Program-made: the position numbers and the translations under genes
Notes under the pieces: model-generated
Told to the model about the DNA's origin: nothing
Seen by the model: the letters and a program-made list of their open reading frames with translations, nothing else
The model's database searches: none
Shown: positions 21,992 through 42,033 of the stretch, one piece after another
Layout of the letters: every line of letters begins with the position of its first letter
Numbering within the stretch: the stretch's first letter is position 1
From: Gammaproteobacteria bacterium
GTDB lineage: Bacteria > Pseudomonadota > Gammaproteobacteria > Ga0077536
Length of the DNA stretch: 64,000 bases
Direction of reading: 5' to 3'
NCBI GenBank assembly: GCA_009692365.1
Contig: SHZJ01000002.1
Location: 52,692-116,691, forward strand

Positions 21992-22201
21992 CGGCAGCTA
22001 CTCGGGCGCGCCCCTGACACAGAACGCTGCGGGGGGACGGCGCAACTGATTAGGTCGCATTATTGCCTTAGCTGCGGCCTACAAGCCAAAGAAAAGGCCG
22101 CGGAGGACAAAAAGAAAACGCCGCGGAGGACAAAAAGAAAACGCCGCGCCGGCACCTGACTGCCGCCCGCGCGGCGAAGGCGAAGGGGGCGATGCCGTGC
22201 T

Positions 22202-22504
22202 TCAGGCGGCCCGCTGCAGCTCGCTTTGGGGCTGGGGGTCGGCGCTAGAGAGGGGCTGGGGCGCCGTGGCCCGTCGTTGGTCGAATTTCGGGGCCGCGAG
22301 CAAAATGCCCACCAGTTGCACTAGGCGGGCGATGGCGAGGGCCACGAGCGCGAGCACGAAGCTGGTGGTGAAAATCTGCAGCGCGACGGCCTCGGGCAGC
22401 CCGACAAAGCCCACCGAGGCTTCAACTAGGGCCAGCCCGCTGCCCGCGCCCGCGATGCCACCGATGGCATCGAGCGTGCGGAAAACAATTTTATGTGGGG
22501 TCAT
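22202..22504 (-). CDS. Small hypothetical membrane protein with two predicted transmembrane helices.
   Basis: 100 aa. Hydrophobic stretches GGIAGAGSGLALVEASVGFVGL and FTTSFVLALVALAIARLVQLVGILL. An AT-richer upstream region is consistent with a promoter. No family recognised. Confidence 0.4.
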   Translation of the reverse strand: MTPHKIVFRTLDAIGGIAGAGSGLALVEASVGFVGLPEAVALQIFTTSFVLALVALAIARLVQLVGILLAAPKFDQRRATAPQPLSSADPQPQSELQRAA

Positions 22505-23352
22505 TTATCTTTACTGTCGCATCGGGGTTCGAGAAGTCACTAGGAACTTTTGCGGTGGGCTTCGTACCACCCTGCGATATGCATACTAGGGGGCCAGAGC
22601 GAACAAACTGTGACGTGTTCCACAAAAACGCACGGCAAATCGAAGAATTAACAAATGTTCACATTTGCCGCCGAGAAACAGCGCCAAGAACGCCCTGGCG
22701 AGCCCTGACGCCATAGGGCGCACCACGGCCAGCCGCCTCCGGGCAGCCTTTTTGGCGCGCCATCGGCGTGCGAATGGGTGGCCGAGGCCACCCCAAATTG
22801 CGTCTGGGTAGCACCGCCCAACCGGGTCGCCGTGCCGCCGAGAGTCCGGCGGGAGAACCCAGCCGCCTGCCGGGCGGTGGGCCCAGCAGTGCTCACCGGC
22901 GGCAGGCGCAGGGCGCGGCGGCGCGGCTAGCCCGGCGCCGATCTGCAACGCCGGGGGAGGCCTACGAGCGCCCGCGCGCGCCCAAAAAATCCCCAATCCG
23001 CGCTCACCGGGTGGCTTTCAGGTCAACCCAAAACCGCCGCCCGCTGGCCGTCAGACCCAGCCCCAATCCGCCCTAATTGGGCGCGCCGCGCACGGCACCG
23101 GGCCGCGGCTATGGGCGCGGCGGCTGGCAGGTTGGGGGACACGGCGCAGGCGGCAGCAGCAGCCCGGGGCAACGGCAGCGGAGCGCAGGCCGGGCACGCT
23201 GGACTGGCCGCCAGGGCCGCGAGCAGCGGCGCCGGGGTGGGGCGCGCTGTCGCGCCGTGACGTCGCTGAACTGGGTGACAGGCTCGATTTAAATGGCCGT
23301 GAACGGGCCGCCGCGCGCGCCCGCTCACCCCCCAGCGCGCCCGGGGGACGTC

Positions 23353-24882
23353 TCAGCCTTGGCGTCGCCGCTCCTCGCGCTCGCGCCGTTTTGCACGGTC
23401 TTGGTCTAGTCGATTGAGGTCTCTTTCCAGCTCCTCCAGGCGGGCATCCAAGCGCAGGCGCTGATAGTGGGTTAGACCGGGCACTACCTGCCCCAAACGC
23501 AATTGCTCGGCGGCCAGCTCGATCTCGCCCAGGCCGCGGTAATACTCGGCGAGGTCGTAATGGGAGTTGGCCCGTTCGCCGAGGATGAGTTCGGCCTCCG
23601 CCAGCAGCTTATAGAACCGGGGTTCGCGCTGCTCGGTGCTCCCAAAACTGCGCAAGAGTTCTTTTGCCGCTAATCCGTTACGCGTGTGGATAAGCAGCGC
23701 GGCATAGCTATAGGCAGCGGCTCGACTCTTAGGGTCTAGCTCGTGCAACTTACGGTAGAGTTCTAAGGCGAGCCGGCGATTGCCGGCGCGTTCCTCGATG
23801 CGTGCCTCGGCCATCCGGAAGGCGGTGAGATTGGGATTCTCGCGCAGGAGTCCAGCCAGTTCGCGGCGCGCGCGCACGAATTCGCTGCCCTCGATCAGCG
23901 CCAGCACATAACCGTAGCGCGCCACGGCTTCGTTGGTGTAATTGCGGTCGCGCAACACGGCTTCGTAATAATTTCTGGCCTGCGCCGGGTCGGACATGCT
24001 CATCACATTGAGCTTCTGCCAGATGAGCAGAAAATCGTAACTGTCCTCGCGCACCACTTTGGAAGGCAAGCGTTCGGCGCGCTCGCGCGCCTCGGCGATC
24101 CGGTTGACGGTGACCGGGTGGGTCCGGAGAAATTCCGGGATCATGCGGGGGTCTGAGTAGCGGTTGGCGAGTTGCAGACGCTCAAAAAAATCGGCCATGG
24201 AGAGCGTACGAAAACCCGATTTGCTCAACAGCTCGATGCCGATACGGTCGGCCTCTTTCTCGTTGGCCCGTGTGAAATCGATTTGATACTGCTGCTGGGC
24301 AGCGGCCACCCCCGCGATCGCACCCAAGCCGGCCTGCGGCACGACCGCCGCCAGCACGATGGCCCCGATAAAGGCGGCCATCGTCGGAATGCTCATGTTT
24401 TTCGCCGCCTCGATCATCCGAGCACCATGCCGCTGGGTGAGATGGGAAATCTCATGGGCCAACACCGAGGCGACTTCGCTTTCGCTTTTGGAACCCAGAA
24501 TCAGCCCAGAATGCAGGCCGACATAGCCGCCCGGCACCGCGAAAGCATTGACCACGTCGCTTTGAATGACAAAAAAATGGAAATCGCCGTAGTAGTGACT
24601 CTTGTCGCCGAGCTCCATCCCGAGCTTCTGGATGTAGTCCTCTACTTCTTCATCGGTGATCACCGGCGCATAGCGGCGCAATTCGCGCATGGTCGCCAAG
24701 CCCAGCTGACTTTCCTGCTCGGGCGAAATAACCGCACCGGCGGAATCGCCAAAATCGGGCAGGTCTTCCAGCTCATCGGCCGGTGCGGCGGCAGCGCAGG
24801 TAAGCCCGAGCAGCGCGCCGAAAACCCTGCCACGCCAAGCCTGGCGCGGCCGCTGGACAGTAGGAAAATGGCTAAACATCAT
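23353..24882 (-). CDS. bepA: Periplasmic M48 metalloprotease with C-terminal TPR repeats, BepA/YfgC-like.
   Basis: Signal peptide. HEXXH motif HEISHLTQRH. C-terminal TPR-like repeats. ~500 aa. Confidence 0.75.
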   Translation of the reverse strand: MMFSHFPTVQRPRQAWRGRVFGALLGLTCAAAAPADELEDLPDFGDSAGAVISPEQESQLGLATMRELRRYAPVITDEEVEDYIQKLGMELGDKSHYYGDFHFFVIQSDVVNAFAVPGGYVGLHSGLILGSKSESEVASVLAHEISHLTQRHGARMIEAAKNMSIPTMAAFIGAIVLAAVVPQAGLGAIAGVAAAQQQYQIDFTRANEKEADRIGIELLSKSGFRTLSMADFFERLQLANRYSDPRMIPEFLRTHPVTVNRIAEARERAERLPSKVVREDSYDFLLIWQKLNVMSMSDPAQARNYYEAVLRDRNYTNEAVARYGYVLALIEGSEFVRARRELAGLLRENPNLTAFRMAEARIEERAGNRRLALELYRKLHELDPKSRAAAYSYAALLIHTRNGLAAKELLRSFGSTEQREPRFYKLLAEAELILGERANSHYDLAEYYRGLGEIELAAEQLRLGQVVPGLTHYQRLRLDARLEELERDLNRLDQDRAKRREREERRRQG

Positions 24883-25041
24883 AGGTGCCCGGATTCTAAC
24901 AGGGGAATTTAGCGGCCCGCGAGCGAGGGGTCTTGTACTGCGACCGCGTGCCGGGCGTTCAGTTCGCCGGGTCGGTCTTTCCCAGACCTTAACCCGCGCC
25001 TTAAGATGCGCACAGATTTGATTATTCCCACGGGGCCGCCC

Positions 25042-26307
25042 ATGAGCAGCAAAAATGCGTTTTACGCCCAGTCCGGCGGGGTGACCGCGGTCATCAACGC
25101 CTCTGCCTGCGGGTTAATCGAGACCGCACGCCAGCACCCGCAGCAGATCGGCCGGGTGCTGGCCGGCCGCAACGGCATTATCGGCGCGCTGACCGAGGAC
25201 CTCATCGATACCAGCCAGGAATCGCCCGCGGCGATCGCGGCCCTGCGCCACACCCCGGCGGGCGCTTTTGGCTCGTGTCGCTACAAGCTGAAAGACTTTG
25301 CAGAAAATCCCGCCGAGTACGCGCGCCTGATCGAGGTTTTCCGCGCCCACGATATTGGCTATTTTTTCTACAACGGGGGGGGGGACTCGGCCGACACCTG
25401 TCTGAAAGTCTCGCAACTCTCTGCCACCCTGGGCTACCCCGTGCAGGCAATTCACGTGCCCAAAACCGTGGACAACGACCTGCCGTTCACCGACGTCTGC
25501 CCGGGCTTTGGCTCGGTTGCCAAGTACGTCGCGGTGTCGGTGCGCGAAGCCAGCTTTGATGTGGCCTCGATGGCGAAAACCTCGACCAAGGTCTTTGTGC
25601 TGGAAGTCATGGGCCGCCATGCGGGCTGGATTGCCGCCGCCGGCGGTCTGGCCAGCGACGCCGGATGTCCGCTACCGCTCATCATTTTATTCCCGGAACT
25701 GCCCTTCGAACCCGCGCGCTTCCTGGCCCGGGTGAACGAGCTGGTGGCCGCCCACGGCTATTGTTCGGTGGTGGTGTCAGAGGGGGTAAAAAGCGCAGAC
25801 GGTCAGTTTCTGGCCGACCAAGGCCTGCGCGATGCCTTTGGCCACGCCCAACTGGGCGGCGTCGCACCGGTTATCGCCAATTTGATCCGGACCGAGCTGA
25901 AGCTCAAATACCACTGGGCGGTGGCGGACTATCTGCAGCGCGCGGCGCGCCATATCGCCGCCAAAACCGACGTTGATCAGGCCTATGCACTGGGTCGGGC
26001 AGCCGTTGAACTGGCGGTGGCGGGGCGTAATGCGGTGATGCCGATCATCGTGCGACACGCCGATGAGCCCTATACTTGGAGCGTTGGTGAGGTGGCCTTG
26101 GCGGACGTCGCTAATCAGGAGCGCAAGCTGCCTCGGGAGTTCCTTAGCGCAGATGGATTTGGTATTTCCGAAGCCGGGCGTCGTTACCTGCTGCCGCTGA
26201 TCCAGGGCGAAGACTACCCGCCTTATCACGCGGGTCTGCCCGCCTATGTCAGGCTGCGCAACCTCGGCGTACCACGCCGAACGGCAACAACGTTTGCACT
26301 CAGGTAG
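25042..26307 (+). CDS. pfp: Pyrophosphate-dependent 6-phosphofructokinase (PFK family, PPi type).
   Basis: MSSKNAFYAQSGGVTAVINASACG is the PFK N-terminal GG motif. The ~420-aa long form is typical of PPi-PFK. Its position directly upstream of a membrane pyrophosphatase supports the call. Confidence 0.75.
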   Translation: MSSKNAFYAQSGGVTAVINASACGLIETARQHPQQIGRVLAGRNGIIGALTEDLIDTSQESPAAIAALRHTPAGAFGSCRYKLKDFAENPAEYARLIEVFRAHDIGYFFYNGGGDSADTCLKVSQLSATLGYPVQAIHVPKTVDNDLPFTDVCPGFGSVAKYVAVSVREASFDVASMAKTSTKVFVLEVMGRHAGWIAAAGGLASDAGCPLPLIILFPELPFEPARFLARVNELVAAHGYCSVVVSEGVKSADGQFLADQGLRDAFGHAQLGGVAPVIANLIRTELKLKYHWAVADYLQRAARHIAAKTDVDQAYALGRAAVELAVAGRNAVMPIIVRHADEPYTWSVGEVALADVANQERKLPREFLSADGFGISEAGRRYLLPLIQGEDYPPYHAGLPAYVRLRNLGVPRRTATTFALR

Positions 26308-26483
26308 CGAGCCAGTAGAATCCCCCCCTTTAGCAGCGCCCCGGCCGGTGGTCGTGCCTCCCGTAACGGCTGTCCGATGCGCGAGCCGCAGCTAAAAAGA
26401 AGCTCGAAGACGGCCCATTGCTTTGGCGTCCGTCAGCCAGTGTCGGCACTGCCGGCATCCAACATCAAGAGAGGAAATTTATA

Positions 26484-28529
26484 ATGTCGGTGCATCTCAT
26501 CCTTGCATTGGGCTGCGCGCTCTTCGCAATTGCCTATGGGCTGTGGTCTCGCAGCTGGATCCTTAGCCAGCCGCAAGGCAACGAGCGCATGCGCGAAATC
26601 GCTGCAGCTATCCAGCAAGGGGCCTCGGCGTATCTCAATCGCCAATACCGGACCATCGCCATCGTTGGCGTCATCCTGACCACTATCATCGCCGTGTTTC
26701 TCGACCTCAACACCGCGCTCGGCTTTGTGCTCGGCGCAGTGCTCTCAGGTGCGGCGGGCTTTATCGGGATGAATATCTCCGTGCGGGCCAATTTACGCAC
26801 CGCCGAAGCTGCTCGGAACGGCCTCAACGCCGCCCTGCAGGTTGCCTTTCGCGGTGGCTCCATCACCGGCATGCTGGTGGTTGGTCTAGGGCTGATGGGC
26901 GTTACCGGTTACTACGCCTACCTCACCTCCATCACGCCCGTCGGGGAATCGGTGAACTTGCACCCGTTGGTGGGACTGGCGTTCGGTAGCTCGCTAATCT
27001 CCATTTTTGCCCGTCTGGGCGGTGGTATTTTCACCAAAGGTGCGGACGTTGGCGCCGACCTCGTGGGTAAAGTCGAAGCCGGCATTCCGGAGGATGACCC
27101 GCGCAACCCGGCCGTTATCGCCGACAACGTGGGTGACAACGTGGGCGACTGCGCTGGCATGGCCGCCGACCTGTTCGAAACCTACGCGGTAACCATCATC
27201 GCCACCATGCTCTTGGGCGACTTGGTGATGAAAAACGTGGGCGTGAACGCGGTGCTCTATCCATTGGTGCTGGGCGGGGTGTCCATCATCGCCTCGGTCG
27301 TCGGTTCGCTGTTCGTGAAAGCCTCCGATGGCGGCAAAATCATGAACGCCCTGTACCGCGGCCTCATCGTGGCGGGCGTGATCGCCGGGGCGGCTTTCTA
27401 TCCGGTCACCAACTGGATGTTCGGTGGCATTGAAGGCGTTTCGGTCATGAACATCTTTGGCTGCGCGCTCGTGGGCCTGGGCCTCACGGCAGCCTTGGTG
27501 TGGATCACCGAGTACTACACCGGCACAGAATTCAAGCCGGTACGGTATGTGGCCGCCGCCTCCGAAACGGGGCACGCCACCAATATCATTGCCGGCATCG
27601 CCGTGTCGATGAAATCTACCGCTTGGCCGGTGCTGTTCGTGTGCGTCGCCATCTGGGCGTCCTTTACCTTAAACGGACTATTTGGCATTGCGGTTGCGGC
27701 CACCTCCATGCTGTCCATGGCGGGCATCATCGTGGCGCTAGACGCCTACGGCCCGATTACCGACAACGCCGGCGGCATCGCTGAAATGGCGGAACTAGGC
27801 CCGGAAATCCGCAATATCACCGACCCGCTAGACGCCGTGGGGAACACCACCAAGGCCGTCACCAAGGGCTACGCCATTGGGTCTGCTGGTCTGGCGGCCC
27901 TCGTGCTGTTTGCCGACTTCACCCACAGCCTGGATGCGCAGGGCAAACTCGTGACCTTCGGTCTCGACCAGCCGGCGGTAATCATCGGCTTGTTCGTGGG
28001 CGGTCTCATCCCGTATCTCTTCGCCGCCATGGCGATGGAGGCGGTGGGTCGCGCAGCGGGTTCGGTGGTGGTGGAAGTGCGGCGTCAGTTTCGTGAGATC
28101 AAAGGGATCATGGAGGGTACGACCAAGCCGGATTACAGCCGCGCCGTCGACCTGCTGACCCAATCTGCGATCCGCGAAATGATCGTCCCCTCCATCCTGC
28201 CCGTGCTCACGCCAGTGGCGCTGGCTTACGTCATGCGTTTCGCGATGGGCCCTGAGGCTGCGCGGATGGCCCTCGGCGGGATGTTGATGGGCACTATCGT
28301 GACCGGCCTGTTTGTGGCCATCTCGATGTGCACCGGCGGCGGGGCATGGGATAACGCCAAAAAATACATTGAGGAAGGCCACCACGGCGGCAAGGGCTCT
28401 GACGCCCACAAAGCCGCGGTAACCGGCGACACCGTTGGCGATCCCTACAAGGACACCGCCGGCCCAGCCATCAATCCGCTGATCAAAATCATCAATATCG
28501 TGGCGCTGCTGTTGGTGCCACTGCTCTAA
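26484..28529 (+). CDS. hppA: Membrane-bound proton-translocating inorganic pyrophosphatase (H+-PPase).
   Basis: [19 protein letters not shown]. Conserved [18 protein letters not shown] and DNVGDNVGD motifs. About 16 TM segments. Strong RBS AGAGGAAAT. Confidence 0.92.
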
Positions 28530-28567
28530 GCGTCCCGTGCTCAGCGCAAACCTTCAAAGCCCGGCCC

Positions 28568-28596
28568 TGTGCGGGGCTTTTTTTGCGTTACCCGTG
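28568..28596 (+). terminator. Rho-independent terminator downstream of hppA.
   Basis: GC-rich hairpin aaagcccggccctgtgcggggct followed by a run of 7 T. Confidence 0.7.
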
Positions 28597-28699
28597 CGAC
28601 CATTACCTAGGCGCGAGACGCCCAAAATGCTAGCGTCGCGCCACTACCGCGTAGCGGCTCACCCTCCCCTTCCGATGTTTCATTGAGGCAGAAAAACCT

Positions 28700-29830
28700 A
28701 TGACTGCGCTGCACTCTGCGATCGACCCCGGCGGCCTGCTCGAATATTCAGTCGTCTACACCGACCGTGCGATGAATCACATGTCGCGCAATTTTCAGGG
28801 AGTGATGCAAGAAGTCTCACGCGTACTCAAGGCGGTTTATCACGCCCACAGTGCGGTGGTGGTGCCGGGCAGCGGGACTTTTGGTATGGAGGCCGTGGCG
28901 CGCCAGTTCGCCACCGGGCGCCGCTGTCTCGTGATCCGCAACGGCTGGTTCAGCTATCGCTGGACGCAGATTTTTGAACTGGGAAATATCCCGGCGGCCT
29001 GCAGTGTGCTCAAGGCCCGGCAGGTCGGTGCCGGTGGGACACGCGCACCGTTCGCCCCGCCCCCTATCGAGGAGGTGGTGGCCGCCATCCACGCGCAAAA
29101 ACCCGAAATCGTGTGCGCACCACACGTCGAAACATCGGCCGGCATGTTGCTGCCGCCTGAGTATCTGCAGGCGGTGGGCACCGCCGTACGCGAAGTGGGC
29201 GGTTTGTTTGTGTTGGATTGCATCGCCTCCGGCGCGTTGTGGATCGACATGGTGGCGTGCGCCGTGGATGTCCTCATCAGCGCGCCGCAAAAAGGCTGGA
29301 GCAGCACGCCCTGTGCGGCGCTCGTGATGTTGAGCGAGCGCGCACGCGCACGGATCGACGACACCACCAGCACCAGTTACGCCTGCGATCTCCGCAAATG
29401 GCTGGCCATCATGGAAACCTACGAGAACGGCGGCCACGCCTACCATGCCACCCTGCCCACCGACGGGCTGCGGCAGTTAGCGGCGGCCATGCACGAGGCC
29501 GAGGTTTACGGTTTTGAGCGCTTAAAAACCCAACAGCTGGCGCTGGGCGAGCGCGTGCGGGCACTGATCGAGAGCCAAGGCTACGCCAGCGTGGCGGCCC
29601 CCGGCTTTCAAGCGCCTTGCGTGGTGGTGAGCTACACCGAGGATCCAGACATCCACAATGGCAAAAAATTTATGGCCACGGGTCTGCAAATTGCCGCCGG
29701 GGTCCCGCTGCAACTTGACGAGCCGGCTGATTTCCGCAGTTTTCGGATTGGTCTGTTTGGCCTCGACAAGCTGCAGGATGTCGAACGCACGCTCGCCAGC
29801 TTGGCAGACTCGCTGCGCCAGCTGACCTGA
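28700..29830 (+). CDS. Class V (PLP fold type I) aminotransferase, serine-glyoxylate/alanine-glyoxylate or 2-aminoethylphosphonate-pyruvate transaminase-like.
   Basis: ~376 aa with GSGTFGMEA near the N-terminus and a central VLDCIASGA...SAPQKGW containing the PLP-Lys. This matches class V architecture. Confidence 0.7.
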   Translation: MTALHSAIDPGGLLEYSVVYTDRAMNHMSRNFQGVMQEVSRVLKAVYHAHSAVVVPGSGTFGMEAVARQFATGRRCLVIRNGWFSYRWTQIFELGNIPAACSVLKARQVGAGGTRAPFAPPPIEEVVAAIHAQKPEIVCAPHVETSAGMLLPPEYLQAVGTAVREVGGLFVLDCIASGALWIDMVACAVDVLISAPQKGWSSTPCAALVMLSERARARIDDTTSTSYACDLRKWLAIMETYENGGHAYHATLPTDGLRQLAAAMHEAEVYGFERLKTQQLALGERVRALIESQGYASVAAPGFQAPCVVVSYTEDPDIHNGKKFMATGLQIAAGVPLQLDEPADFRSFRIGLFGLDKLQDVERTLASLADSLRQLT

Positions 29831-29863
29831 ACGAAGTGGCGTCGCGCGGTCGCGCGCGAGCGC

Positions 29864-29899
29864 TTGTTTAAGGGCCGCTGGCGGCTAGCTAGACCACCG
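29864..29899. terminator. Perfect 11-bp inverted-repeat hairpin between convergent genes; possible bidirectional terminator.
   Basis: GCCGCTGGCGG-ctagctagacca-CCGCCAGCGGC. There is no T/A tract on either side, so intrinsic-terminator status is uncertain. Confidence 0.4.
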
Positions 29900-29918
29900 C
29901 CAGCGGCACGCGCCCCGG

Positions 29919-31001
29919 TCAGCGAAATGCCGGCATGACGTACTCCGCAAAATCTCGCAGCACTTTGCGCTCGCAATCCATCGGTGGCCACAGGTCTAGT
30001 TCTTTGATGCCGCCAGCTTCCAGGCGTTGGATGTGTTCGATGAGTTCGTCTGGCTCGCCGACCAACGCGCTCGCTTGGATGGCAGCCGGCGTGATAAAGC
30101 GCCGTTCGGCCGGGTTCAAGTACACCAAATGGCCATCATGAATCTGCCGGAAACGCGCATTTTCCGGCAGGCTCATGGCCTGCACGTGCGCGAGGTACTC
30201 GGGCCAGATCCCCTGAAAATGCGGCGGAATGATGGCATCGTTACAGCCGTTGTCTTTCCAGACCTCATAGAAAAAGTGCAACTCGCAGGCAACCCAACTG
30301 CCGGTTTCATCGATGATGCGCTCGTCACTCAGGCGGTCGCCCGGCCGCAGCACGCAACTCGTGGCGATGAACGCGGTGTGAAAATCAGGCGGTAGCGTGC
30401 GGCCCGCTTTGGCGGCGCCGCGCTCGATGGCCGCGAGCTTGGGCTCGACGACCTCCGGCTCGCCGCCGACCGTGATCCAGCCATCGCCAAAAGCGCCGGT
30501 GGCTTCTAGGGCTTTCGGCCCGTTGGCCGCGACGTAAATGGGGATCCGGTTGTCCAAATCGATGAAGCGCCGCTCGCGGTGCAGAAACTGAATTTCGCGC
30601 GTTTCGCCGTGATAGGTGTAGTTCACGGCCTCGCCGTCCAGCAGCGCCCGCACCACGCGCAGATATTCGCGGAATTCCCCGACCCGCATCGGGTCTTGGC
30701 CCATCACCCGCATCGCCGTATGCCCGGTGCCCAGACCTAGGAATACCCGTCCCGGCGCCAGCGCGTTGATGCTGGCGATGGAATGCGCTGTCACCGGTGC
30801 GATGCGCGTACCCGTGATAGAAACCCCGGTACCAATGGCGATGCGCCGGGTGTGGTGCGCCGCGAGCGCCATGGTGGCGTAGCAATCCGACCAGAGCATT
30901 TGGGAATCGCCCACCCATGCCCGGTCGTAGCCGAGTTCTTCCGCGTAGCGAATGATGTCCCAGTTGTTGATGTGCGTGCTGACGCCGAGGCCAAATTGCA
31001 T
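29919..31001 (-). CDS. Luciferase-like (LLM) flavin/F420-type oxidoreductase, second paralog in the window.
   Basis: MQFGLGVSTHINNWDIIRYAEELGYDRAWVGDSQ and LGLGTGH are LLM motifs. Strong RBS GGAGG before the ATG (complement 30999..31001). The track ORF extends upstream to 31136 without coding support. Confidence 0.75.
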   Translation of the reverse strand: MQFGLGVSTHINNWDIIRYAEELGYDRAWVGDSQMLWSDCYATMALAAHHTRRIAIGTGVSITGTRIAPVTAHSIASINALAPGRVFLGLGTGHTAMRVMGQDPMRVGEFREYLRVVRALLDGEAVNYTYHGETREIQFLHRERRFIDLDNRIPIYVAANGPKALEATGAFGDGWITVGGEPEVVEPKLAAIERGAAKAGRTLPPDFHTAFIATSCVLRPGDRLSDERIIDETGSWVACELHFFYEVWKDNGCNDAIIPPHFQGIWPEYLAHVQAMSLPENARFRQIHDGHLVYLNPAERRFITPAAIQASALVGEPDELIEHIQRLEAGGIKELDLWPPMDCERKVLRDFAEYVMPAFR

Positions 31002-31147
31002 AAAACCTCCGTGCTTTCTCGTGCTGCATTGTGGGCGCGCACCGTGTTGCAAAACCCGGCAACAGGCGCGACGGTCCGTGCAGCTTGCGGGTGATTGCGG
31101 GCGCGGGCAAGCTGGCTGGCATCGCGCAGCGGCCACGCCAAAACCCC

Positions 31148-32348
31148 ATGAGAGTGCTCTTGATTAGCCGCGCCCGTGCCCCCGGGGTGGGCGGGATCGA
31201 AAACCACAACCACGCGCTGTCCGTGTAGCTGCCGCACTATGCCGCCGAGAGGACGCTCGCTAATCGCCGGGGCAAACGGGCGCTGCCCTGGTTCCTACCG
31301 TTCGCCACACTCTTTGCGCTAGTTGCCCGGCCACGTTACGACGTCGTGTTGCTCGGCGACGGCGTGCTGGCCATTACCGGCTGGATTATCAAGCGCCTAC
31401 AACCACGCCAAAAGGTCGTGTGCGTGGTCCACGGGCTAGATTTGATCTGGCCTGCGCGCTGGTATCAGCGCCTGTGGGTGCGGCGTTTTCTGCCGGCCCT
31501 AGATGGACTCATCGCGGTCAGCGCACCAACGCGCCACCACGCGTTGGCGCACGGCTTGGCCGCCGCCGCGATAACGGTGATCCCGAACGGAATCGAGACC
31601 GAAACGCTGGCCGGCAGCGACGCGCGCGAAGACTTGGCCCGGTGCTTGGGTCGAGATGTTGCGCACACGCACGTGCTATTGACTGCCGGACGGCTGGCGC
31701 GACGCAAAGGCGCGGCGTGGTTCATCCGTGAAGTGCTCCCCCAACTAGCGCCCAATACGCTGTATGTCCTCGCCGGTGCCGGCCCGGCCTTCGCCGAGAT
31801 TCAGAGCGCCATCCGTGATACCAACCTCCAAGGCCGGGTGCTCCTGCTTGGGCCAGTGAGTGACGCCACGCGCAACCTCCTCCTCAACACCGTGGATGTG
31901 TTCGTGCAGCCCAACATTCCGGTGCCTGGGGACATGGAAGGTTTTGGGATTGCCGTGCTCGAAGCCGCGGGGTGTGGTCGCCCGGTGGTGGCGGCGGCGT
32001 TGGAGGGTTTACTCGACGCCATTACCCCCAACGAGAACGGCTTGTTGGTCGCCCCCGCGGCCGCGCGCTGGATCGCGACCCTCAACGCACTGCTGGCCGA
32101 TCCGCAGGCGCGTCACGACTTGGGGGCACACGCCGCGCAGTACACCCATCAGCACTACCACTGGCACGGGATCGCAGGCGCGTCACGACTTGGGGGCACA
32201 CGGCGCGCAGTACACCCATCAGCACTACCACTGGCACGGGATCGCAGCGCGTCACGACTTGGGGGCACGCGGCGCGCAGTACACCCATCAGCACTACCAC
32301 TGGCACGGGATCGCAGCGCGTCACGCCGCGGCGCTCGCAGACATCTGA
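31148..32348 (+). pseudogene. Family 1 (GT4-type) glycosyltransferase gene, disrupted by an in-frame TAG at 31226..31228 and a frame-shifting tandem triplication near the 3' end.
   Basis: ATG 31148 encodes MRVLLISRARAPGVGGIENH (GT4 N-terminus) followed by TAG. The same frame resumes as ...RPRYDVVLLGDGVL...VVCVVHGLD...FVQPN..EGFGIAVLEAAGCGRPVVA (GT4 core). The C-terminus is repeated in two frames across three 70/70/69-bp repeat units. Confidence 0.6.
32104..32325. repeat. Tandem direct repeat of ~70 bp x3 (plus a 13-bp partial fourth) inside the 3' end of the glycosyltransferase gene.
   Basis: Copies at 32104..32173, 32174..32243 and 32244..32312 (the last is 69 bp, with one G lost). Unit is gcaggcgcgtcacgacttgggggcacacgccgcgcagtacacccatcagcactaccactggcacgggatc. 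Confidence 0.9.
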
Positions 32349-32573
32349 CGCCCGCCCGCGCCGGGGCACGCGCCGCGCGACGACGCTCACGGCTGGCGGC
32401 GAACCACGCCGCAATGGTCTATTTTGCACCGTGGACGAAGCGCCCCCCGCGACCCGCTCCGACCTCTTTTTATCACCCCCTCAGGCGCTTAAGATTGGGC
32501 CCGCGGGGCGCCGGTTCTCGTTAAACAATCCAAGCAAAACGAGCAGACGGGTAGTCTGCACTAGCGGGAGCGG

Positions 32574-33659
32574 GTGGATATGCGTGAAAGGATGGCGATT
32601 GTGTCGCCTGCGGAGGTCACCCCGGCGTGGCTCACTCAGGCGCTGCAACAAAGGGGCATCGACGCGCGCGTAAGCCGCCTCGACAGCGAGAACGTGGGCA
32701 CCGGACAGCTCGGCGAAACGCGGCGTTTTTTTCTGCACTACCACGGAACTGTGCCACCCGATGCACCCGCCACGCTGGTGGGTAAATTTGCGTCGCCCAA
32801 CGAAGTGGCCCGCAAATCCGGCCGTGAAATGGGCTTTTACAAAGCCGAGGTCATGTTTTACCGCGAACTCGCGCATCGCGCCGGCATTCGCACGCCGGCG
32901 GTGTATGTCGCAGAGCTCGATCCGGTGAGCAACGATTTCACCCTGCTGTTAGAGGATTTGGCCCCGGCCCAACAGGGTGACCAAATGCGCGGCTGCACGC
33001 TGGCCGAGGCGCGCGCCGCCTTGAGCGAAGCCGCCAGACTCCACGCCTCGTTCTGGAATGACACCCAGCTCAGCCAACAAGACTGGTGCTACGTGCCTGC
33101 CGGGGCGCAAGGCTATTACACCACCGAACTCATCGAACAAAGCTGGGACCACGTCCAGAAAAACTACCCGGGCTGGCTGAGTCCTGAGGTCATGGCGGTG
33201 TGTGCCAAGTATGTGCGCAACCACGCGTGGTGGAACCGCCCACGCGAATTCCCGAAATGTTTCTCGCATAACGATTTTCGACCCGACAACATGATGTTCA
33301 GCACCACCGGCGAACGCGTGGCGGTGGTGGACTGGCAGACCTGCGGCTTTCTCGGCACGGGCATGGATTTGGCGTATTTCCTCGGCGGGGCGCTGCCACG
33401 CGAGCTGCGCGTGCAACATGAGGAGGTGCTGCTGCGCGAGTATCACACCGAACTACTGGCCCGGGGGGTCGAGCACTACACCTTCGAGCATCTGCTAAAT
33501 GACTATCGCCACTACAGCTTTGCGGCGATCGCCGTGGCCCTCGCCGCCACGCTCATCGTCAAGCGCACCGACCGTGGCGACGCCATGCTGATGCACATGA
33601 CCATTGGCGCCGCGCTGCAGGCGCTGGACACCCACGCCGTCGATTTTCTGCCAGATTAG
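32574..33659 (+). CDS. Protein-kinase-fold phosphotransferase of the CHK/EcKL/APH superfamily.
   Basis: Catalytic motif FSHNDFRPDNMMF (Brenner/CHK-like H-x-D-x4-N) and downstream VVDWQTCGF (DFG-equivalent). ~360 aa. Confidence 0.7.
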   Translation: MDMRERMAIVSPAEVTPAWLTQALQQRGIDARVSRLDSENVGTGQLGETRRFFLHYHGTVPPDAPATLVGKFASPNEVARKSGREMGFYKAEVMFYRELAHRAGIRTPAVYVAELDPVSNDFTLLLEDLAPAQQGDQMRGCTLAEARAALSEAARLHASFWNDTQLSQQDWCYVPAGAQGYYTTELIEQSWDHVQKNYPGWLSPEVMAVCAKYVRNHAWWNRPREFPKCFSHNDFRPDNMMFSTTGERVAVVDWQTCGFLGTGMDLAYFLGGALPRELRVQHEEVLLREYHTELLARGVEHYTFEHLLNDYRHYSFAAIAVALAATLIVKRTDRGDAMLMHMTIGAALQALDTHAVDFLPD

Positions 33660-33670
33660 GAGGCCTGCCG

Positions 33671-34357
33671 ATGAAACTTGCCAAACAACATCTCGACCTT
33701 GGGTTGTTTACCGCAGATATCAACGCCCAGCGCACTTTTTGGGGCGAGGTCGTGGGCCTGCGCTTAGACCACGAACTGACCTTACGGGAAGGCTGGGTGC
33801 AGCATCGCTACGATGCGCACAACTCGGTCATCAAAGTGAATCACTTTGAAGGTGCCCTGCCCGACTGGCCGGCCTCGGGCTACGTCGGGGTCACCATTGC
33901 ACGCGCCGAGCAAACCCCCTGGGAAGGTCGGCATCCCGGTGGTGGTCGCGTGCGCTTGGTGCCCACGGGCAGCGAGGGCGTGGTGGGTATCGCCATCACG
34001 GTGAGCACCCCGGAGCCCGCACGGATGCTGGATTTTTATCTGCATGCGATGGAATTTGAGGAGGCCGGACCGAATACCGCGCGCTGCGGGGATACCCTGC
34101 TGGTCATCGAGAAGGGGCCGGGTGGGCAGCCGTTCAACGACTTCATCGCCCCCGGCTATCGCTATCTCACGGTGCAGATTTTTGATGCCGATGAGGCCTG
34201 CGCGGGCATCGTGGCGCGCGGCGGGCGCTTGGTGCAGGCCCCGGTGAGCTTGGGGACGGTCGCGCGCTACGCCTTCGTGGCCGACCCAGACGGCAATTGG
34301 TTTGAAATCTCCGCGCGGGCCTCGCTGACCGGCGTCCTGCCGATCCCCAACGCCTAG
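33671..34357 (+). CDS. Two-domain VOC-superfamily protein (glyoxalase/bleomycin-resistance/extradiol dioxygenase-like).
   Basis: MKLAKQHLDLGLFTADINAQRTFWGEVVGLRL and a second beta-alpha-beta-beta-beta module (ITVSTPEPARMLDFYLHAMEF...VADPDGNWFEI). Confidence 0.65.
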   Translation: MKLAKQHLDLGLFTADINAQRTFWGEVVGLRLDHELTLREGWVQHRYDAHNSVIKVNHFEGALPDWPASGYVGVTIARAEQTPWEGRHPGGGRVRLVPTGSEGVVGIAITVSTPEPARMLDFYLHAMEFEEAGPNTARCGDTLLVIEKGPGGQPFNDFIAPGYRYLTVQIFDADEACAGIVARGGRLVQAPVSLGTVARYAFVADPDGNWFEISARASLTGVLPIPNA

Positions 34358-34962
34358 CGCCCGGGCGAGGGACTTGGGTCAAGCGCGTGGGCAACCCCCG
34401 CGGCGGTCAAGAGCTGTAGGGTTTCGGCCAGCGGCAGACCCACGACGTTGGAATAGCTGCCCTCGATCCGATCGACCAACGCCCCACCCAGACCTTGAAT
34501 GCCATACGCGCCGGCTTTGTCCGCCGGCTCGCCGCTGGCCCAATAGGCCTCAATGTCTTGCTGGCGCAGCGCCCGAAAGCGCACGCGGGTTGCCACGGTG
34601 CAGGCGTAGGGGGCGCCTACCGGTGGCCGCAGCACCACCGCCGTGTACACCTCGTGCCAAACGCCCGCGAGCCGGCTGAGCATGCGCAGACCGTCCGGCC
34701 GGTCCAGCGGTTTACCGAGAATTTCGCCGCCGACCACCACCGTCGTATCCGCGGCCAGCACCCGGGCACCGGGCGCTGCGGCACGCTGCCCGGCCAGCGC
34801 CTTCGCCTGCGCCAAGCGCGCCACATAGACCGGCGCGGCTTCGCCCAACCGTCGCGACTCGTCTACCTCGCCGTCGATAATCTGGAAAGACACCCCCAGC
34901 GTGCGCAGTAACTCGGCCCGCCGTGGCGAACGCGAGGCGAGGCACAGCGCCACCCCGCTCAT
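34354..34962 (-). CDS. maf: Maf-family nucleoside triphosphate pyrophosphatase (septum formation protein Maf).
   Basis: LCLASRSPRRAELL...GAYGIQGLGGALVDRIEGSYSNVVGLPL. Start at the internal Met MSGVALC, with a 4-bp ATGA overlap with rlmH. Confidence 0.85.
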   Translation of the reverse strand: MSGVALCLASRSPRRAELLRTLGVSFQIIDGEVDESRRLGEAAPVYVARLAQAKALAGQRAAAPGARVLAADTTVVVGGEILGKPLDRPDGLRMLSRLAGVWHEVYTAVVLRPPVGAPYACTVATRVRFRALRQQDIEAYWASGEPADKAGAYGIQGLGGALVDRIEGSYSNVVGLPLAETLQLLTAAGVAHALDPSPSPGR

Positions 34963-35423
34963 GCGCGGTGATAGGGGTGATGATTGAGCACGGTCCATGC
35001 CCGGTAGAGTTGTTCCAGCACGATGACCCGCACCAGTGCGTGGGGCAAGGTGAGCTTGGAGAGTGACCAAACTTCGTGCGCCGCCGCGCGCAGGGTCGGT
35101 GCGTGACCTTCCGCACCACCAATGGCCAACACCACCTCGCCACCGCGCGCCCGCCAAGCCTCCAGCCGCGCCGCCAGTTGCACCGTCGACCAGTCGGCGC
35201 CACGTTCGTCCAGCGCCACCAGCCAGGCCTCGCTGGGCAGCGCTTTGAGCACGGCTTGGCCTTCTCGTTCGCGTTGCTGGTCCACGCCTGCGGCCCCGGT
35301 GTGCGGGGTGAAGTCGCGCGTGCGGATGGTGAGGGCGCCGGTTAGACGTTTGAGGTATTCCGCGCCGGCCTGCGTGGCCCACGCCGGTGGCTTTCGCGCC
35401 ACGCAGTACACCTGCACACGCAT
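34959..35423 (-). CDS. rlmH: 23S rRNA (pseudouridine1915-N3)-methyltransferase.
   Basis: MRVQVYCVARKPPAWA...LVALDERG...VLAIGGAEG is the SPOUT RlmH pattern. ~155 aa from the internal Met. Confidence 0.85.
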   Translation of the reverse strand: MRVQVYCVARKPPAWATQAGAEYLKRLTGALTIRTRDFTPHTGAAGVDQQREREGQAVLKALPSEAWLVALDERGADWSTVQLAARLEAWRARGGEVVLAIGGAEGHAPTLRAAAHEVWSLSKLTLPHALVRVIVLEQLYRAWTVLNHHPYHRA

Positions 35424-35439
35424 GCTGCGGGGCCGGCGT

Positions 35440-35802
35440 TTAGGCCGCCGGCGGCTCGGTGGCGCGCAGCCGCTTGGGGATTTCCCACAGCTTTTCCAGC
35501 TGGTAGAAGCCGCGGGTTTCTGGCTGCATGAGGTGGACGATGACATCGCCCAAATCGACCAGCACCCACTCGGAGGTTTCTTCGCCTTCGGTGCCGATGG
35601 GCCGTACTTTGCGTTTACGCGCAGCTTCCACCACGCGGTCGGCCAGTGCCTTCACCTGGCGCGAGGAGCGGCCGGTGGCAACGACCATGAAGTCGGCGAT
35701 CGAGGTGAGTTTACGGACGTCGAGGACTTTGACGTCCTCGGCCTTGCCATCGTCCAGCGCAGCTGTGACGACATCGAGAAGTTTTCGGGGTGTTACTGCC
35801 AT
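35440..35802 (-). CDS. rsfS: Ribosomal silencing factor RsfS (Iojap family).
   Basis: DFMVVATGRSSRQVKALADRVVE...EWVLVDLGDVIVHLMQPETRGFYQLEKLW aligns with E. coli RsfS. Start is at MAVTPRK or MRPMAV. Confidence 0.85.
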   Translation of the reverse strand: MAVTPRKLLDVVTAALDDGKAEDVKVLDVRKLTSIADFMVVATGRSSRQVKALADRVVEAARKRKVRPIGTEGEETSEWVLVDLGDVIVHLMQPETRGFYQLEKLWEIPKRLRATEPPAA

Positions 35803-35851
35803 CGGCCGCATTGTGGCCGTCAGCGCCGCCGCACACAACCGCGGCGCACAC

Positions 35852-36517
35852 TTATGGCGCCAGATAAAGCCCCTGAGCCGTAATAAACGCCACCACTGCG
35901 GGCGGTGTGAGGGCATCCAAACACTGACCGGCCCGGCGACGCGCGCGCAGATCGGTGGCGGAGATGGGCAACAACGGGATGGACAACCAGCCTACGCAGC
36001 CGGCCGGGGTCGTCGTTAATCGGCCAAAATCGGTGGTCTGCGCGCGCGCCAATTCGGGGATTGCGCCCAGACTCACGCCCGGCCGGGTCGCCACCACCAA
36101 ATGCGCGTAGTCCAATAATTCTCGCCAGCGATGCCACAGCGGCAGCGCATTCCAGGCGTCCGCACCCAAAATGAAACACAGCGGGCTGGTGGGAAACTGC
36201 TGCCGCAGGGAAATCAGGGTGTCGATCGTATAGCTGCACCCGCCCCGTGCTAGCTCCCGAGCGTCCACCACCAAGCCCGGCACAACGGCTCGTTCCAGCA
36301 TCGCCAAACGCTGCTCGGCGCGGGCCACGGCCGTGGCGCGCAGGTGGCTGCTCGCGGTAGGAATGAGCCGTACTTCGGCGAGCCCCAGCGCCTCGCGCAC
36401 CTCGAGCGCCAAACGCAGGTGGCCGTGGTGCACCGGGTCGAAGGTCCCACCCAGAATGCCGATGGCCGAGTTCAGCGCGCCCGCGACGCGCTCAGGTGCG
36501 CACGTGACCATCGCCAA
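35852..36517 (-). CDS. nadD: Nicotinate-nucleotide adenylyltransferase.
   Basis: [18 protein letters not shown] contains the (H/T)xGH motif. C-terminal ISATDLR. Exact start uncertain; it overlaps the proA 3' end. Confidence 0.85.
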
Positions 36518-37754
36518 TCACCACCCATTTTTGCGAGGTCAGGCCCTCTAGGCCCACCGGTCCGCGCGCGTGAAATTTATCGGTGCTGATCCCAATTTCG
36601 GCCCCGAGGCCGTATTCAAAACCATCGGCAAAGCGGGTGGAGGCGTTGACCATCACCGAACTGGAGTCGACTTCCGCGATGAAACGCCGCGCCCGCGAGA
36701 CGTGCTCGGTCACGATGGCATCGGTGTGCTGGGAGCCATATTGCCGAATGTGGGCGATGGCTTGGTCTAGCCCCTCGACGAGGCGGATCGCGAGGATGGG
36801 TGCCAAATATTCCTCGTACCAGTCTTGTTCGGTGGCGATGAGCACCTGGCCGTCGATTGCCCGCGTCGCGGCACAGCCACGTAATTCAACCCCCGACGCC
36901 CGGTAGCGTGCCAGCAGCGGCGGCAACACCCGGGCGGCGATGGCTCGGTCGACCAGCAAGGTCTCCATGGTGTTGCACGTGCCGTAGCGCTGGCACTTCG
37001 CGTTGTGGGCGATGGCGATGGCTTTGTCGATATCGGCGTCGGCGTCGATGTAAACGTGACACACGCCATCCAGGTGTTTGATGACCGGCATGCGCGCCTC
37101 GCGCGTGACTCGCTCGATGAGTCCTTTGCCGCCGCGCGGGACGATGACGTCGATGTATTCGGGATGCGCCAACATCTCGCCCACGGCTGCGCGGTCGGTC
37201 GTTGCGATCACTTGCACCGCGGTGGGCGGCAAACCCACGTCCGCCAGCCCCGCCTGCACGCAGGCCGCGATCGCCTGATTCGCGTGATAGGCCTCTGAAC
37301 CGCCGCGCAATATCGCGGCGTTACCGGACTTCAAGCACAGCGCCGCGGCATCAGCGGTCACATTGGGTCGCGCCTCGTAGATTATCCCCACCACCCCGAG
37401 CGGCACCCGCATCCGCCCTACCTGAATCCCACTGGGGCGATAGGCGAGGTCGGTCAGGGTGCCGATGGGGTCGGCCAGTGCCGCCACTTCACGCAGGCCC
37501 AAGGCCATCGCCGCCACCCGCGCGGGCGTCAGCGTCAGACGGTCCAGCAGCGCGGCGTCCAGCGCGGCGGCGGCCGCTAAATCGCGCTCATTCGCCGCCA
37601 GAATGCCGGCGGCTTCCGCTTCGATGCGCACGGCGATCGCCAACAGGGCGGCGTTTTTAGCGGCGGTGGCGGCATTCGCCAGGGTCACGGCGGCGGCGCG
37701 CGCCGCCGCACCGACCTCGCGCAGATACCCGGCGATGAGTGATTCATCCATCAT
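36492..37754 (-). CDS. proA: Glutamate-5-semialdehyde dehydrogenase (gamma-glutamyl phosphate reductase).
   Basis: [36 protein letters not shown] and CNTMETLLV align with ProA. Confidence 0.92.
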
Positions 37755-37760
37755 TGTGCG

Positions 37761-38798
37761 TTACCTCGCAGTCCTCAGCGTGTCACCCAGTGCGCCCAGC
37801 CACGGTCCGCCGGCCAGCGCAATCAACAGGGACTCCAGTTCCTCCCAAGGCTCACCGGTGTCCATCCCCTTGACCATCCAATCGATGCGCACGCTGTCGC
37901 GCAGCAGCGTTTGCACTTGCCGCGGCGACAGCCGTTGCAGCGCTCGGCGCAAAAGTGCTTGTCTGGTTTGCCAGACCCGCTCGGTCGCGAAACCGGCCTC
38001 CACGCTGGACGCCGACTGCACGCGCGACAGCAGGCGCAGTTCACGCCCCGCCGACCAACTAATGACCACCGGTTCAGCGCCTTCCTCACGCACCCCACGC
38101 AGCATGCGCACCGCGCGGGCCGCGTCACCCGCCAGCGCGCTGTCCACGACCTTGTAAACATCATAGCGGGCACTGTCTGTTACCGCCGCCAGCGCATGCT
38201 CCAAGGTGATCACCGGCGCGTCGACCAACAACAGCAGCAAGTCGATTTCCTGCGCGGCGGCCAGCAGATTACCCTCGGTGCGGGCCGCGAGTAGGTCGGC
38301 GGCAGGGGCCGCGAGTTCGCGGCCGTGGGCGCGCGCGCGCGCGTCCAGCCAGTGGTGGAACGCTGCCCCTTCGGGGAGGCGGCAAGGCACCACCACGCCG
38401 CGGGCAGCGAGCCCTGCAAACCAGTCTTTTTTTTCATCATCGCGGCTCAGCGCTTCGGCGCTGATGATGAAAATGTCTTCCCCCTCGGGGGCACTGGCGA
38501 GGGCTTTGAGAAAACTCTCGGCGGGCGCATCGGGTTTTTTTTTGCCCAGTTCAATTTCAATCACGCGCCGCGCACAGAATAAGGACAAGCTCTGGGTTTC
38601 CGCGTGGAGAGCGTCCCAATTGATCCCGGTCACGGCATCAAAGCGCAAGCGCTCCTCGGCGCCGGCGGCCCGGGCGGCGAGGCGGATGGCGTCTGCGCTT
38701 TCGATGCGTTGCAGCGGCTCCTCGCCAAAAATCAAAAACAGCGGCGCGAGGGGCGGACGCGCCAGCGCCGCCGCGAGGCGCTCCGGTTTAATGATCAA
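37761..38798 (-). CDS. holA: DNA polymerase III subunit delta.
   Basis: MIIKPERLAAALARPPLAPLFLIFGEEPL is the HolA N-terminus. Conserved position between lptE and proA/nadD. Confidence 0.85.
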   Translation of the reverse strand: MIIKPERLAAALARPPLAPLFLIFGEEPLQRIESADAIRLAARAAGAEERLRFDAVTGINWDALHAETQSLSLFCARRVIEIELGKKKPDAPAESFLKALASAPEGEDIFIISAEALSRDDEKKDWFAGLAARGVVVPCRLPEGAAFHHWLDARARAHGRELAAPAADLLAARTEGNLLAAAQEIDLLLLLVDAPVITLEHALAAVTDSARYDVYKVVDSALAGDAARAVRMLRGVREEGAEPVVISWSAGRELRLLSRVQSASSVEAGFATERVWQTRQALLRRALQRLSPRQVQTLLRDSVRIDWMVKGMDTGEPWEELESLLIALAGGPWLGALGDTLRTAR

Positions 38799-39318
38799 CC
38801 GGGGACGCCTTGAATTTAAGGGTCTCCATCCGGAGCGCGAGGGAACGCGAAGCGTCTTTTTCCAGCTGGATGCGGGAGTTCAGTTCCACCTCTTCGGTGC
38901 CCAGAACCGAGAATTCGTCGAAGACGAAATCCTGATACCAAGTGAATTTTTCGGGCGCCAAAAGCAGCGAGCCGTCGCCAGCGCGGACCTCTAGCTGCAC
39001 CTGCAGACCCAGTTCGATTTCGCGAACCTTACCCGTACTAGGGTCGACGGACAGCGTGCGGCGGTCGAAGGATTCGTGGGAGAGGGTCACGATGGCATCG
39101 GCCTGCGCGGCGTCCCCCACGATGCTAATGCCCACGTAAGTGAGTTCCGACACGAAATAGCTATACAGATAGCCCGAGGGCAGGGGTGTCACGAAGAAGC
39201 GTTTGCCGGTGAGGGCGGTCTTGCGGACACCGCGCAAATACCAGCCACCACACCCCGCGAGCCAGGTGGCCGCACTCGCGCCCAAGCCTAGCTTCAGCAG
39301 TTGGCGACGCGTCGGCAC
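38788..39318 (-). CDS. lptE: LPS-assembly lipoprotein LptE.
   Basis: Lipobox LAGCGGW. ~175 aa. Sits immediately downstream of leuS as in most proteobacteria. Confidence 0.8.
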   Translation of the reverse strand: MPTRRQLLKLGLGASAATWLAGCGGWYLRGVRKTALTGKRFFVTPLPSGYLYSYFVSELTYVGISIVGDAAQADAIVTLSHESFDRRTLSVDPSTGKVREIELGLQVQLEVRAGDGSLLLAPEKFTWYQDFVFDEFSVLGTEEVELNSRIQLEKDASRSLALRMETLKFKASPVDH

Positions 39319-39323
39319 CGACC

Positions 39324-41912: not shown

Positions 41913-42033
41913 GGCAACCGACTGAGTGACGCACACTAGGCCTTCGGCCAGCGTCGCGTTTAAATAAGGATAGGTAGCTGATTTTTTTGCGAAATCGTGA
42001 GCGGCCCGAGAATACCGTAGGCACTGCTCAAGC

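Follow-up and report, generated by a model that had tools for sequence, protein, structure and literature searches.

A probable recent pseudogene of a GT4 glycosyltransferase with a 70-bp tandem triplication in a gammaproteobacterium from deep Lake Baikal

Introduction

How is a glycosyltransferase gene to be read when a stop codon closes its frame shortly after the start, and a tandem triplication breaks that frame a second time near the 3' end? The gene that raises this question lies in a stretch of 64,000 nucleotides (nt), referred to below as the window, taken from contig SHZJ01000002.1 (positions 52,692 to 116,691 of the forward strand; GenBank assembly GCA_009692365.1). The source is an uncultured gammaproteobacterium from bathypelagic water of Lake Baikal, represented by a short-read metagenome-assembled genome (MAG). 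From its ancestral ATG to its ancestral TGA, the glycosyltransferase (GT) gene occupies positions 31148..32348 on the + strand. A first-pass annotation of the window had offered several readings of this locus, namely a recently decayed pseudogene in an accessory patch, an assembly artefact, or a contingency locus. We present evidence that the locus is very probably a genuine and evolutionarily recent pseudogene of a chromosomal GT4 glycosyltransferase, and we weigh the alternatives where the evidence bears on them.

Results and Discussion

Lesions in the glycosyltransferase gene

The GT frame opens at ATG 31148 with MRVLLISRARAPGVGGIENHNHALSV, meets TAG at 31226..31228 on the + strand, and then stays open across the entire conserved core with no further stop. 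Direct reading and translation thus agree with the first-pass annotation on the start, the in-frame stop, and the continuation of the same frame beyond it. The premature stop at codon 27 differs by a single base, G>A at 31227, from the TGG (Trp) found in the orthologs; DNA alignments show TGG at this codon in four related loci (L001, L002, L003 and L037), and Trp27 is invariant across 38 family members. As TGG has become TAG, translation stops after 26 residues. In an AlphaFold model of an 89%-identical ortholog, which stands in here for the window copy, W27 sits in helix alpha1.

The second lesion is a net insertion of 139 nt produced by the tandem array. Excision of these 139 nt (32174-32312) gives a repaired GT open reading frame (ORF) of 353 codons with the C-terminal end ...HWHGIAARHAAALADI*. 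In the sequence as it stands, it is the +1 frame that closes with ...AARHAAALADI*, as had been noted, with its stop at 32346-32348, while the GT frame continues past the array as Arg-rich junk up to a stop at 32522-32524. Gene finders report a 392-amino-acid ORF (P0002; 31346..32524, + strand) that begins at an internal GTG and carries about 120 residues of frameshifted junk at its end. This ORF is recorded as MSQ66770.1, "MAG: glycosyltransferase [Gammaproteobacteria bacterium]", on a 226-kb contig, and it does not include the first 66 residues of the protein. The only match in an exact-protein look-up of the 392-residue ORF was its own contig, and a promoter and terminator scan around the GT gene gave no signal exceeding the shuffled expectation.

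Amino acid substitutions add to these two lesions. A cluster of seven lineage-specific substitutions, six of them amino-acid changing, lies at 31162..31195 (+ strand) in the most conserved N-terminal motif of the family, where SRAYPPVTGGIEN has become SRARAPGVGGIEN in the window and P11A hits an invariant proline. Compared with the ortholog, codons 1-40 show eight nonsynonymous and two synonymous changes, concentrated at 31162-31195, for a ratio of nonsynonymous to synonymous substitution rates (dN/dS) of 1.44. When family-invariant columns were defined among 29 relatives, the window copy was found to break three of 85 (P11A, W27* and Y346H), compared to none in the ortholog.

The lesions are absent from all orthologs that we compared. 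Our protein search returned two close matches, the window's own ORF and a cluster of 30 orthologs (P0001) with 88-89% identity. Comparison with orthologous intact glycosyltransferases, which had been proposed as a check, gave a uniform result, in that all 15 listed ortholog variants (P0001 and 14 others, found on dozens of contigs) carry TGG/Trp as codon 27 and have the repeat unit only once. The N-terminus, MRVLFITRAFPPVVGGIENH, is identical among the variants, and the C-terminal unit reads ...ADPQARHRLGTRAAQYTH(Q/E)HHHW(R/H)(I/L)IAARYAAAIG.... The unit is likewise single-copy in the wider family, with the repeat occurring in none of the 15 variants or of about 80 wider homologs. A scan of GTDB representative genomes returned sister lineages only, one at 88% identity (L003) and one at 92% but cut at residue 195 (L037).

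Enzyme family and the question of a residual product

The ancestral product is a chromosomal GT4 glycosyltransferase of the retaining type with a GT-B fold. The repaired 353-residue protein matched the Pfam families Glyco_trans_1_4 (E-value 9e-25), Glycos_transf_1 (2e-24) and Glyco_transf_4 (3e-15), and bit scores exceeded the gathering cut-offs for PF13692 (88 against 27), PF00534 (86.3 against 26.4), PF13439 (57.1 against 28.5) and PF13579 (40.6 against 29.7). The E-x7-E motif is present as EGFGIAVLE at residues 264-272, and E264 and E272 are invariant among 30 sequences. The nearest solved structures by sequence were sucrose-phosphate synthase Tll1590, PimB', GlgM, PimA and MshA. The AlphaFold model of the ortholog (predicted local distance difference test, pLDDT, 88.4) shows the two Rossmann domains of a GT-B fold, with the C-terminal helices passing back across to the N-domain. 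Its top Foldseek matches were GlgM, PimB', HepE, BshA and MshA, with probability 1.00 and template modelling (TM) scores of 0.65-0.75, and it superposed on 6tvp, 3oka and 4xso with TM 0.66-0.75. The earlier assignment to a GT4-type enzyme is thus borne out by Pfam, by similarity to solved structures and by Foldseek. The ancestral protein resembles the retaining GT-B enzymes of family GT4 (PimB', GlgM, HepE, BshA, MshA and sucrose-phosphate synthase) in both Pfam halves, in the E-x7-E motif and in fold; it differs from the solved enzymes in that sequence identity is just 16-24%, and in that the window copy is disrupted and has no equivalog-level match. No NCBIfam model reached its cut-off (the best gave 72 bits against 260), so there is no equivalog-level assignment of donor or acceptor.

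It is conceivable that a working enzyme is still made, either as the 392-residue product from GTG 31346 or through readthrough or recoding of the TAG. The GenBank entry is named "glycosyltransferase", and the 392-residue ORF keeps both Pfam domains above threshold. However, that ORF has lost residues 1-66, which contain strand beta1, the invariant RA.PP..GGIEN loop and helix alpha1, and a start matching GTG 31346 occurs in no ortholog among the listed variants. Its final helix is also replaced by the junk residues; in GT-B enzymes, the final C-terminal helix packs back onto the N-terminal domain. As for the TAG, this codon terminates 12 of the 38 long ORFs in the window, and a scan of the whole window found no tRNA gene and hence no suppressor tRNA there, indicating that TAG is an ordinary stop here. 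An Rfam scan of the whole window was likewise empty. Recoding of TAG as a sense codon was rejected on these ORF counts and on 16 syntenic neighboring genes that contain no in-frame stops. We therefore regard a working product of either kind as extremely improbable, and the pseudogene probably yields no functional protein. MSQ66770.1 is then the truncated, frameshifted translation product of an inactive gene and needs a pseudogene flag. The lineage has probably lost the glycoconjugate that the enzyme made.

Structure and origin of the tandem array

Tandem Repeats Finder reported the array at 32103-32325 with a period of 69, 3.2 copies, 98% matches and a score of 418. A triplication of 70 bp at 98% identity is far beyond chance. 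This result and our base-by-base dissection both match the arrangement first described, with units of 70, 70 and 69 bp at 32104..32312 followed by a partial fourth of 13 bp. All units lie on the + strand. Copy 1 (32104..32173, 70 nt) is the ancestral one; it is read in the GT frame and encodes ARHDLGAHAAQYTHQHYHWHGI, which in the ortholog model covers the penultimate helix together with the turn leading to the final one. Copy 2 (32174..32243, 70 nt) begins at the junction GCAGGCGCG, with its crossover to the left of a G indel, and it is here that the shift to the +1 frame occurs. Copy 3 (32244..32312, 69 nt) begins at the junction GCAGCGCG, with its crossover to the right of the G indel, and keeps to the frame of copy 2 and the tail. 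The partial fourth copy (32313..32325, 13 nt, GCAGCGCGTCACG) opens the ancestral tail AARHAAALADI*. Given that everything from copy 2 to the tail is read in a single frame, the 70-type junction alone breaks the reading frame. The GT frame accordingly encodes the C-terminal peptide ARHDLGAH(A/G)AQYTHQHYHWHGIA once and the +1 frame encodes it two more times, as had been noted, with the third copy reading ...GARGAQ....

The array is bounded by two arms of microhomology. The upstream arm is the first 14 nt of copy 1, GCAGGCGCGTCACG (32104-32117), which encodes QARH; the downstream arm is the 13-nt partial copy, which encodes AARH. The arms have 13 matching bases and a 1-nt bulge, so that they form near-identical direct repeats GCAG[G]CGCGTCACG located 70 nt apart. 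In the sister lineage the corresponding segments, as placed by DNA alignment, are far less alike (CCAGGCTCGCCACC and GCCGCGCGTTACG). Each array junction, at 32174 and at 32244, combines sequence from both arms in a hybrid. At the junction between copies 1 and 2 the left part is tail-type and the sequence is upstream-type from the extra G on, giving a 70-nt unit, whereas between copies 2 and 3 the switch comes only past CACG (GCAGCGCGTCACG followed by AC), giving a 69-nt unit. The resulting chimeric sequences are GGGATCGCAGGCGCGTCACGAC for the 70-type and GGGATCGCAGCGCGTCACGAC for the 69-type. Copies differ at two substitutions (C at 32133 against G at 32203; A at 32200 against G at 32269) and by one G (GCAGGCG against GCAGCG). 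The two substitutions suggest that, judging from the sequence, the duplications, though recent, are of some age.

We infer the following mechanism and order of events. A G>A transition converted the family-invariant Trp27 codon to a stop, and the 70-nt segment for the penultimate C-terminal helix would have been duplicated twice in tandem, through replication slippage or illegitimate recombination between the 13-nt direct repeats. A crossover to the left of the G bulge would produce the 70-nt unit and another to the right of it the 69-nt unit; alternatively, a single duplication event may have been followed by a 1-nt indel. The insertion shifts the frame past copy 1, removes the last helix and adds the junk residues, and P11A, Y346H and the nonsynonymous burst in the Gly-rich N-terminal motif make up a third kind of lesion. 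RecA-independent slippage between short direct repeats is a classical process. Microhomology-mediated tandem duplication has been reported as the dominant route to bacterial tandem duplications (bioRxiv 10.64898/2026.02.28.708716), and the array resembles the products of that route in its single-copy segment flanked by microhomology, its head-to-tail arrangement, its hybrid junctions and its expansion to three copies. It differs in having two crossover points, with units of 70 and 69 nt, and here the mechanism is deduced from sequence only. The locus does not open a long-standing question; it may serve as a small textbook example of a short direct repeat that seeds a tandem duplication which then expands.

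In other respects the locus resembles ordinary pseudogenes that carry a nonsense mutation and a frameshift. It has a nonsense base change, a frame-shifting insertion and lost invariant residues, next to intact neighbors and with intact orthologs elsewhere. What sets it apart is that a two-step 70/69-nt tandem duplication, and not a homopolymer indel, caused the frameshift, and that the public record is unflagged.

A tandem repeat within a surface-glycan gene also recalls phase variation, and the first-pass annotation had suggested a contingency locus in which gain or loss of a 70- or 69-nt unit toggles the frame. Glycosyltransferase genes are a classic target of phase variation, the length of the unit is not divisible by three, and, with copies 2 and 3 in the same frame as the tail, one change of 1 nt or of one unit would bring the ORF back into frame. 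In the phase-variable GT genes of Neisseria, Haemophilus and Campylobacter, too, a repeat lies within the ORF and its copy number sets the frame. However, the TAG at codon 27 kills the gene in any repeat state, and the invariant residues P11 and Y346 have been lost, so that frame switching would be pointless. Typical phase-variation repeats (1-8 nt) are shorter than the 70-nt unit by an order of magnitude, there are just three copies and they are diverged, and relatives are without the repeat, as noted above for the 15 ortholog variants and the wider homologs. A contingency locus is therefore hard to credit, and the lesions are better accounted for by a recently inactivated gene.

Gene neighborhood

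Examination of the genes surrounding the locus revealed a conserved block that consists of phosphofructokinase (PFK), H+-translocating pyrophosphatase, an aminotransferase-like gene, a divergently oriented luciferase-like (LLM) oxidoreductase, the GT, an EcKL kinase and a VOC protein, followed by Maf, RlmH, RsfS, NadD, ProA, HolA, LptE and LeuS. The ortholog is found in the same gene order. Sister loci align to the window across about 21 kb at 85-91% nucleotide identity, and distant relatives with a 60-62%-identical GT keep LLM or VOC-Maf-RlmH beside the GT gene. This shared order in relatives indicates a conserved chromosomal neighborhood, and the description of the locus as part of an accessory patch is contradicted by it.

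The neighbors are intact. Each of the 16 flanking genes that could be aligned spans its full length with neither gaps nor stops, at 78-98% amino acid identity. Immediately to the left, the LLM oxidoreductase gene (29919..31001, - strand) is 98% identical to its ortholog; to the right, the EcKL/APH-type kinase gene (32580..33659, + strand) and, after it, the VOC protein gene (33671-34357) are full length compared with their orthologs.

Two further observations concern the relatives. Apart from a small gammaproteobacterial clade, the proteins most closely related to the GT (45-60% identity) are almost all from MAGs of Patescibacteria (Moraniibacteriota; L004-L082, P0007-P0120), a group that is abundant in deep Baikal (PMC9948471), and many of these records carry the label "uncultured Bdellovibrionales". 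This distribution suggests a possible inter-phylum transfer of the GT family. In addition, the syntenic sister locus L003 (CAMAXW010000014.1) is titled "MAG: Klebsiella pneumoniae isolate MH-08apr19-131"; at about 90% identity to a lake gammaproteobacterium with 63% guanine plus cytosine, it is evidently mislabelled.

Selection on the locus

Pairwise comparison with the ortholog gave a dN/dS of 0.24 for the GT gene, compared to 0.04-0.10 for most neighbors and values near 0.2 for Maf and NadD. When amino acid changes were polarised, ten fell on the window branch and seven on the ortholog branch, a difference that was not significant in a relative-rate test (p = 0.63). This indicates that the inactivation is recent, and we claim no long-standing decay.

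The gene also shows a mosaic of synonymous divergence from the sister lineage, with dS of 0.07-0.21 in codons 1-265 and 0.63-1.1 in codons 266-353. In the flanks (25000-42000), dS relative to the sister lineage is 0.18-0.27 on the left and 0.34-0.70 on the right. A past recombination breakpoint probably lies in or beside the GT gene, to judge from these values.

Assembly artefact or genuine lesions

Because the genome was assembled from short reads, the lesions could in principle be errors of assembly or sequencing, with the true genome carrying TGG at codon 27 and one 70-nt unit; the first-pass annotation had considered this as well. To evaluate it we used Logan assemblies of two winter metagenomes from Lake Baikal, SRR8561390 (1250 m) and SRR8561391 (1350 m), which contain contigs identical to the window. 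These contigs are built per run from 31-mers seen at least twice, with each 31-mer kept once, and were retrieved by exact-protein look-ups of two intact neighbors. One contig (L083) corresponds to 28436-31174 and is 100% identical to the window. A second, from SRR8561391 (L084), corresponds to 29751-31560 and is also 100% identical, so that a different assembler reproduced the TAG together with the N-terminal changes.

A third contig, also from SRR8561391 (L085), bears on the array. It corresponds to 32296-34585 with 100% identity, and its starting point is informative. The 30-mer at 32296-32325 recurs at 32227-32256, and is followed by A at the junction of copies 2 and 3 and by C in the tail. 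Since the junction and the tail share this 30-mer, a contig assembled at k=31 must begin exactly at 32296 if the junction, which contains ...GGGATCGCAGCGCGTCACGAC..., exists in the reads. A single-copy allele would give no k=31 branch at that position. The end points of contigs from independent k-mer assemblies can thus be used to check a repeat junction in the absence of read mapping.

Other properties of the locus are also difficult to reconcile with an artefact. The microhomology arms are 9-13 nt long, far below any assembly k, so that no loop in the assembly graph could have generated the array. With two substitutions and one indel between them, the three copies are distinguishable within a single 150-nt read, and the 16 flanking genes are all clean. 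We also considered a sequencing-error signature at 31162-31195, where six changes are of the X>G type, and dropped it, as the spectrum and density of differences over 7 kb were unremarkable. An artefact is consequently very unlikely, given that one independent assembly contig repeats the TAG and another begins at the predicted branch point.

Several points nevertheless weigh against reading the locus as a genuine pseudogene, and some of them favor an artefact. The sequence derives from a short-read MAG, and the Logan contigs, which exclude an assembler artefact though not a consensus that follows a minor variant, probably go back to the reads used for the original assembly. Their independent support covers the 69-type junction only, and extends neither to the 70-type junction nor to a copy number of three. 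Contigs from the same samples break within the GT gene: one of 20,110 bp from ERZ1305449 (same European Nucleotide Archive assembly) ends in the 5' end of the gene near 31211, and Logan contigs end within it at 31174 (L083) and 31560 (L084); these ends hint that other alleles, possibly intact, co-exist in the population. Two exact-pattern scans of Joint Genome Institute metagenome contigs, one with the 3' end of the repeat unit and one with the codon-27 region carrying R at the variable base, returned nothing, so that they supplied no independent population sample of the lineage. The signal of relaxed selection is modest as well, given the nonsignificant relative-rate test and the similar dN/dS of Maf and NadD. 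Even so, the lesions themselves, their absence from orthologs, the intact neighbors and the independent assembly together favor the recently decayed pseudogene that had been among the initial readings.

It is also worth asking whether the loss was adaptive, that is, whether loss of the glycan was selected, for example as an escape from phage that use it as a receptor. Several independent lesions in one gene amid 16 intact neighbors, together with the hints of allele heterogeneity, would fit such a scenario, and viruses are abundant in deep Baikal (PMC7678222). However, further hits are expected under neutrality once a gene has been knocked out, so that the multiplicity of lesions needs no selection, and the GT has no equivalog-level match that would indicate its substrate or product. 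We consider adaptive loss unlikely. A related and rather doubtful possibility is that the locus is polymorphic in deep Baikal, with intact and broken alleles and perhaps a variable number of 69/70-nt copies, and that glycan loss is selected, for example under phage pressure. If true, the polymorphic locus would offer a natural snapshot of adaptive loss of a surface glycan through microhomology-mediated duplication, which would in principle be reversible by loss of a unit.

Other features of the window

A second tandem array in the window, at 7995-8144, has a 42-bp unit in 3.6 copies with 97% matches, and lies in frame within an ORF at 7686-9308 (- strand). The repeated peptide, PAAPALTPAPVA(A/V)S, occurs about 3.6 times and forms a Pro/Ala-rich linker close to the C-terminal part of the protein. 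Like the GT array it is a young tandem duplication, but one that leaves the frame intact and is for that reason tolerated.

The region 21991-23353, flanked by a glgC-like gene and an M48 peptidase gene, comprises 1.36 kb with no long ORF, and contains a 23-bp tandem repeat at 22088-22148 (2.7 copies, 97%). Sequence similarity to the sister lineage falls away in this region, and a sister gene of 171 amino acids is matched only by a 100-amino-acid ORF at 49% identity. The region is a variable spot and possibly holds a second decayed or fast-evolving gene.

At 25006-28529, the gene for a phosphofructokinase of the inorganic pyrophosphate (PPi) type lies directly upstream of the gene for the H+-translocating pyrophosphatase. 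The pairing of these two enzymes is known in methanotrophic Methylococcales, and by analogy it may offer a clue to the affiliation or physiology of the organism that the MAG represents.

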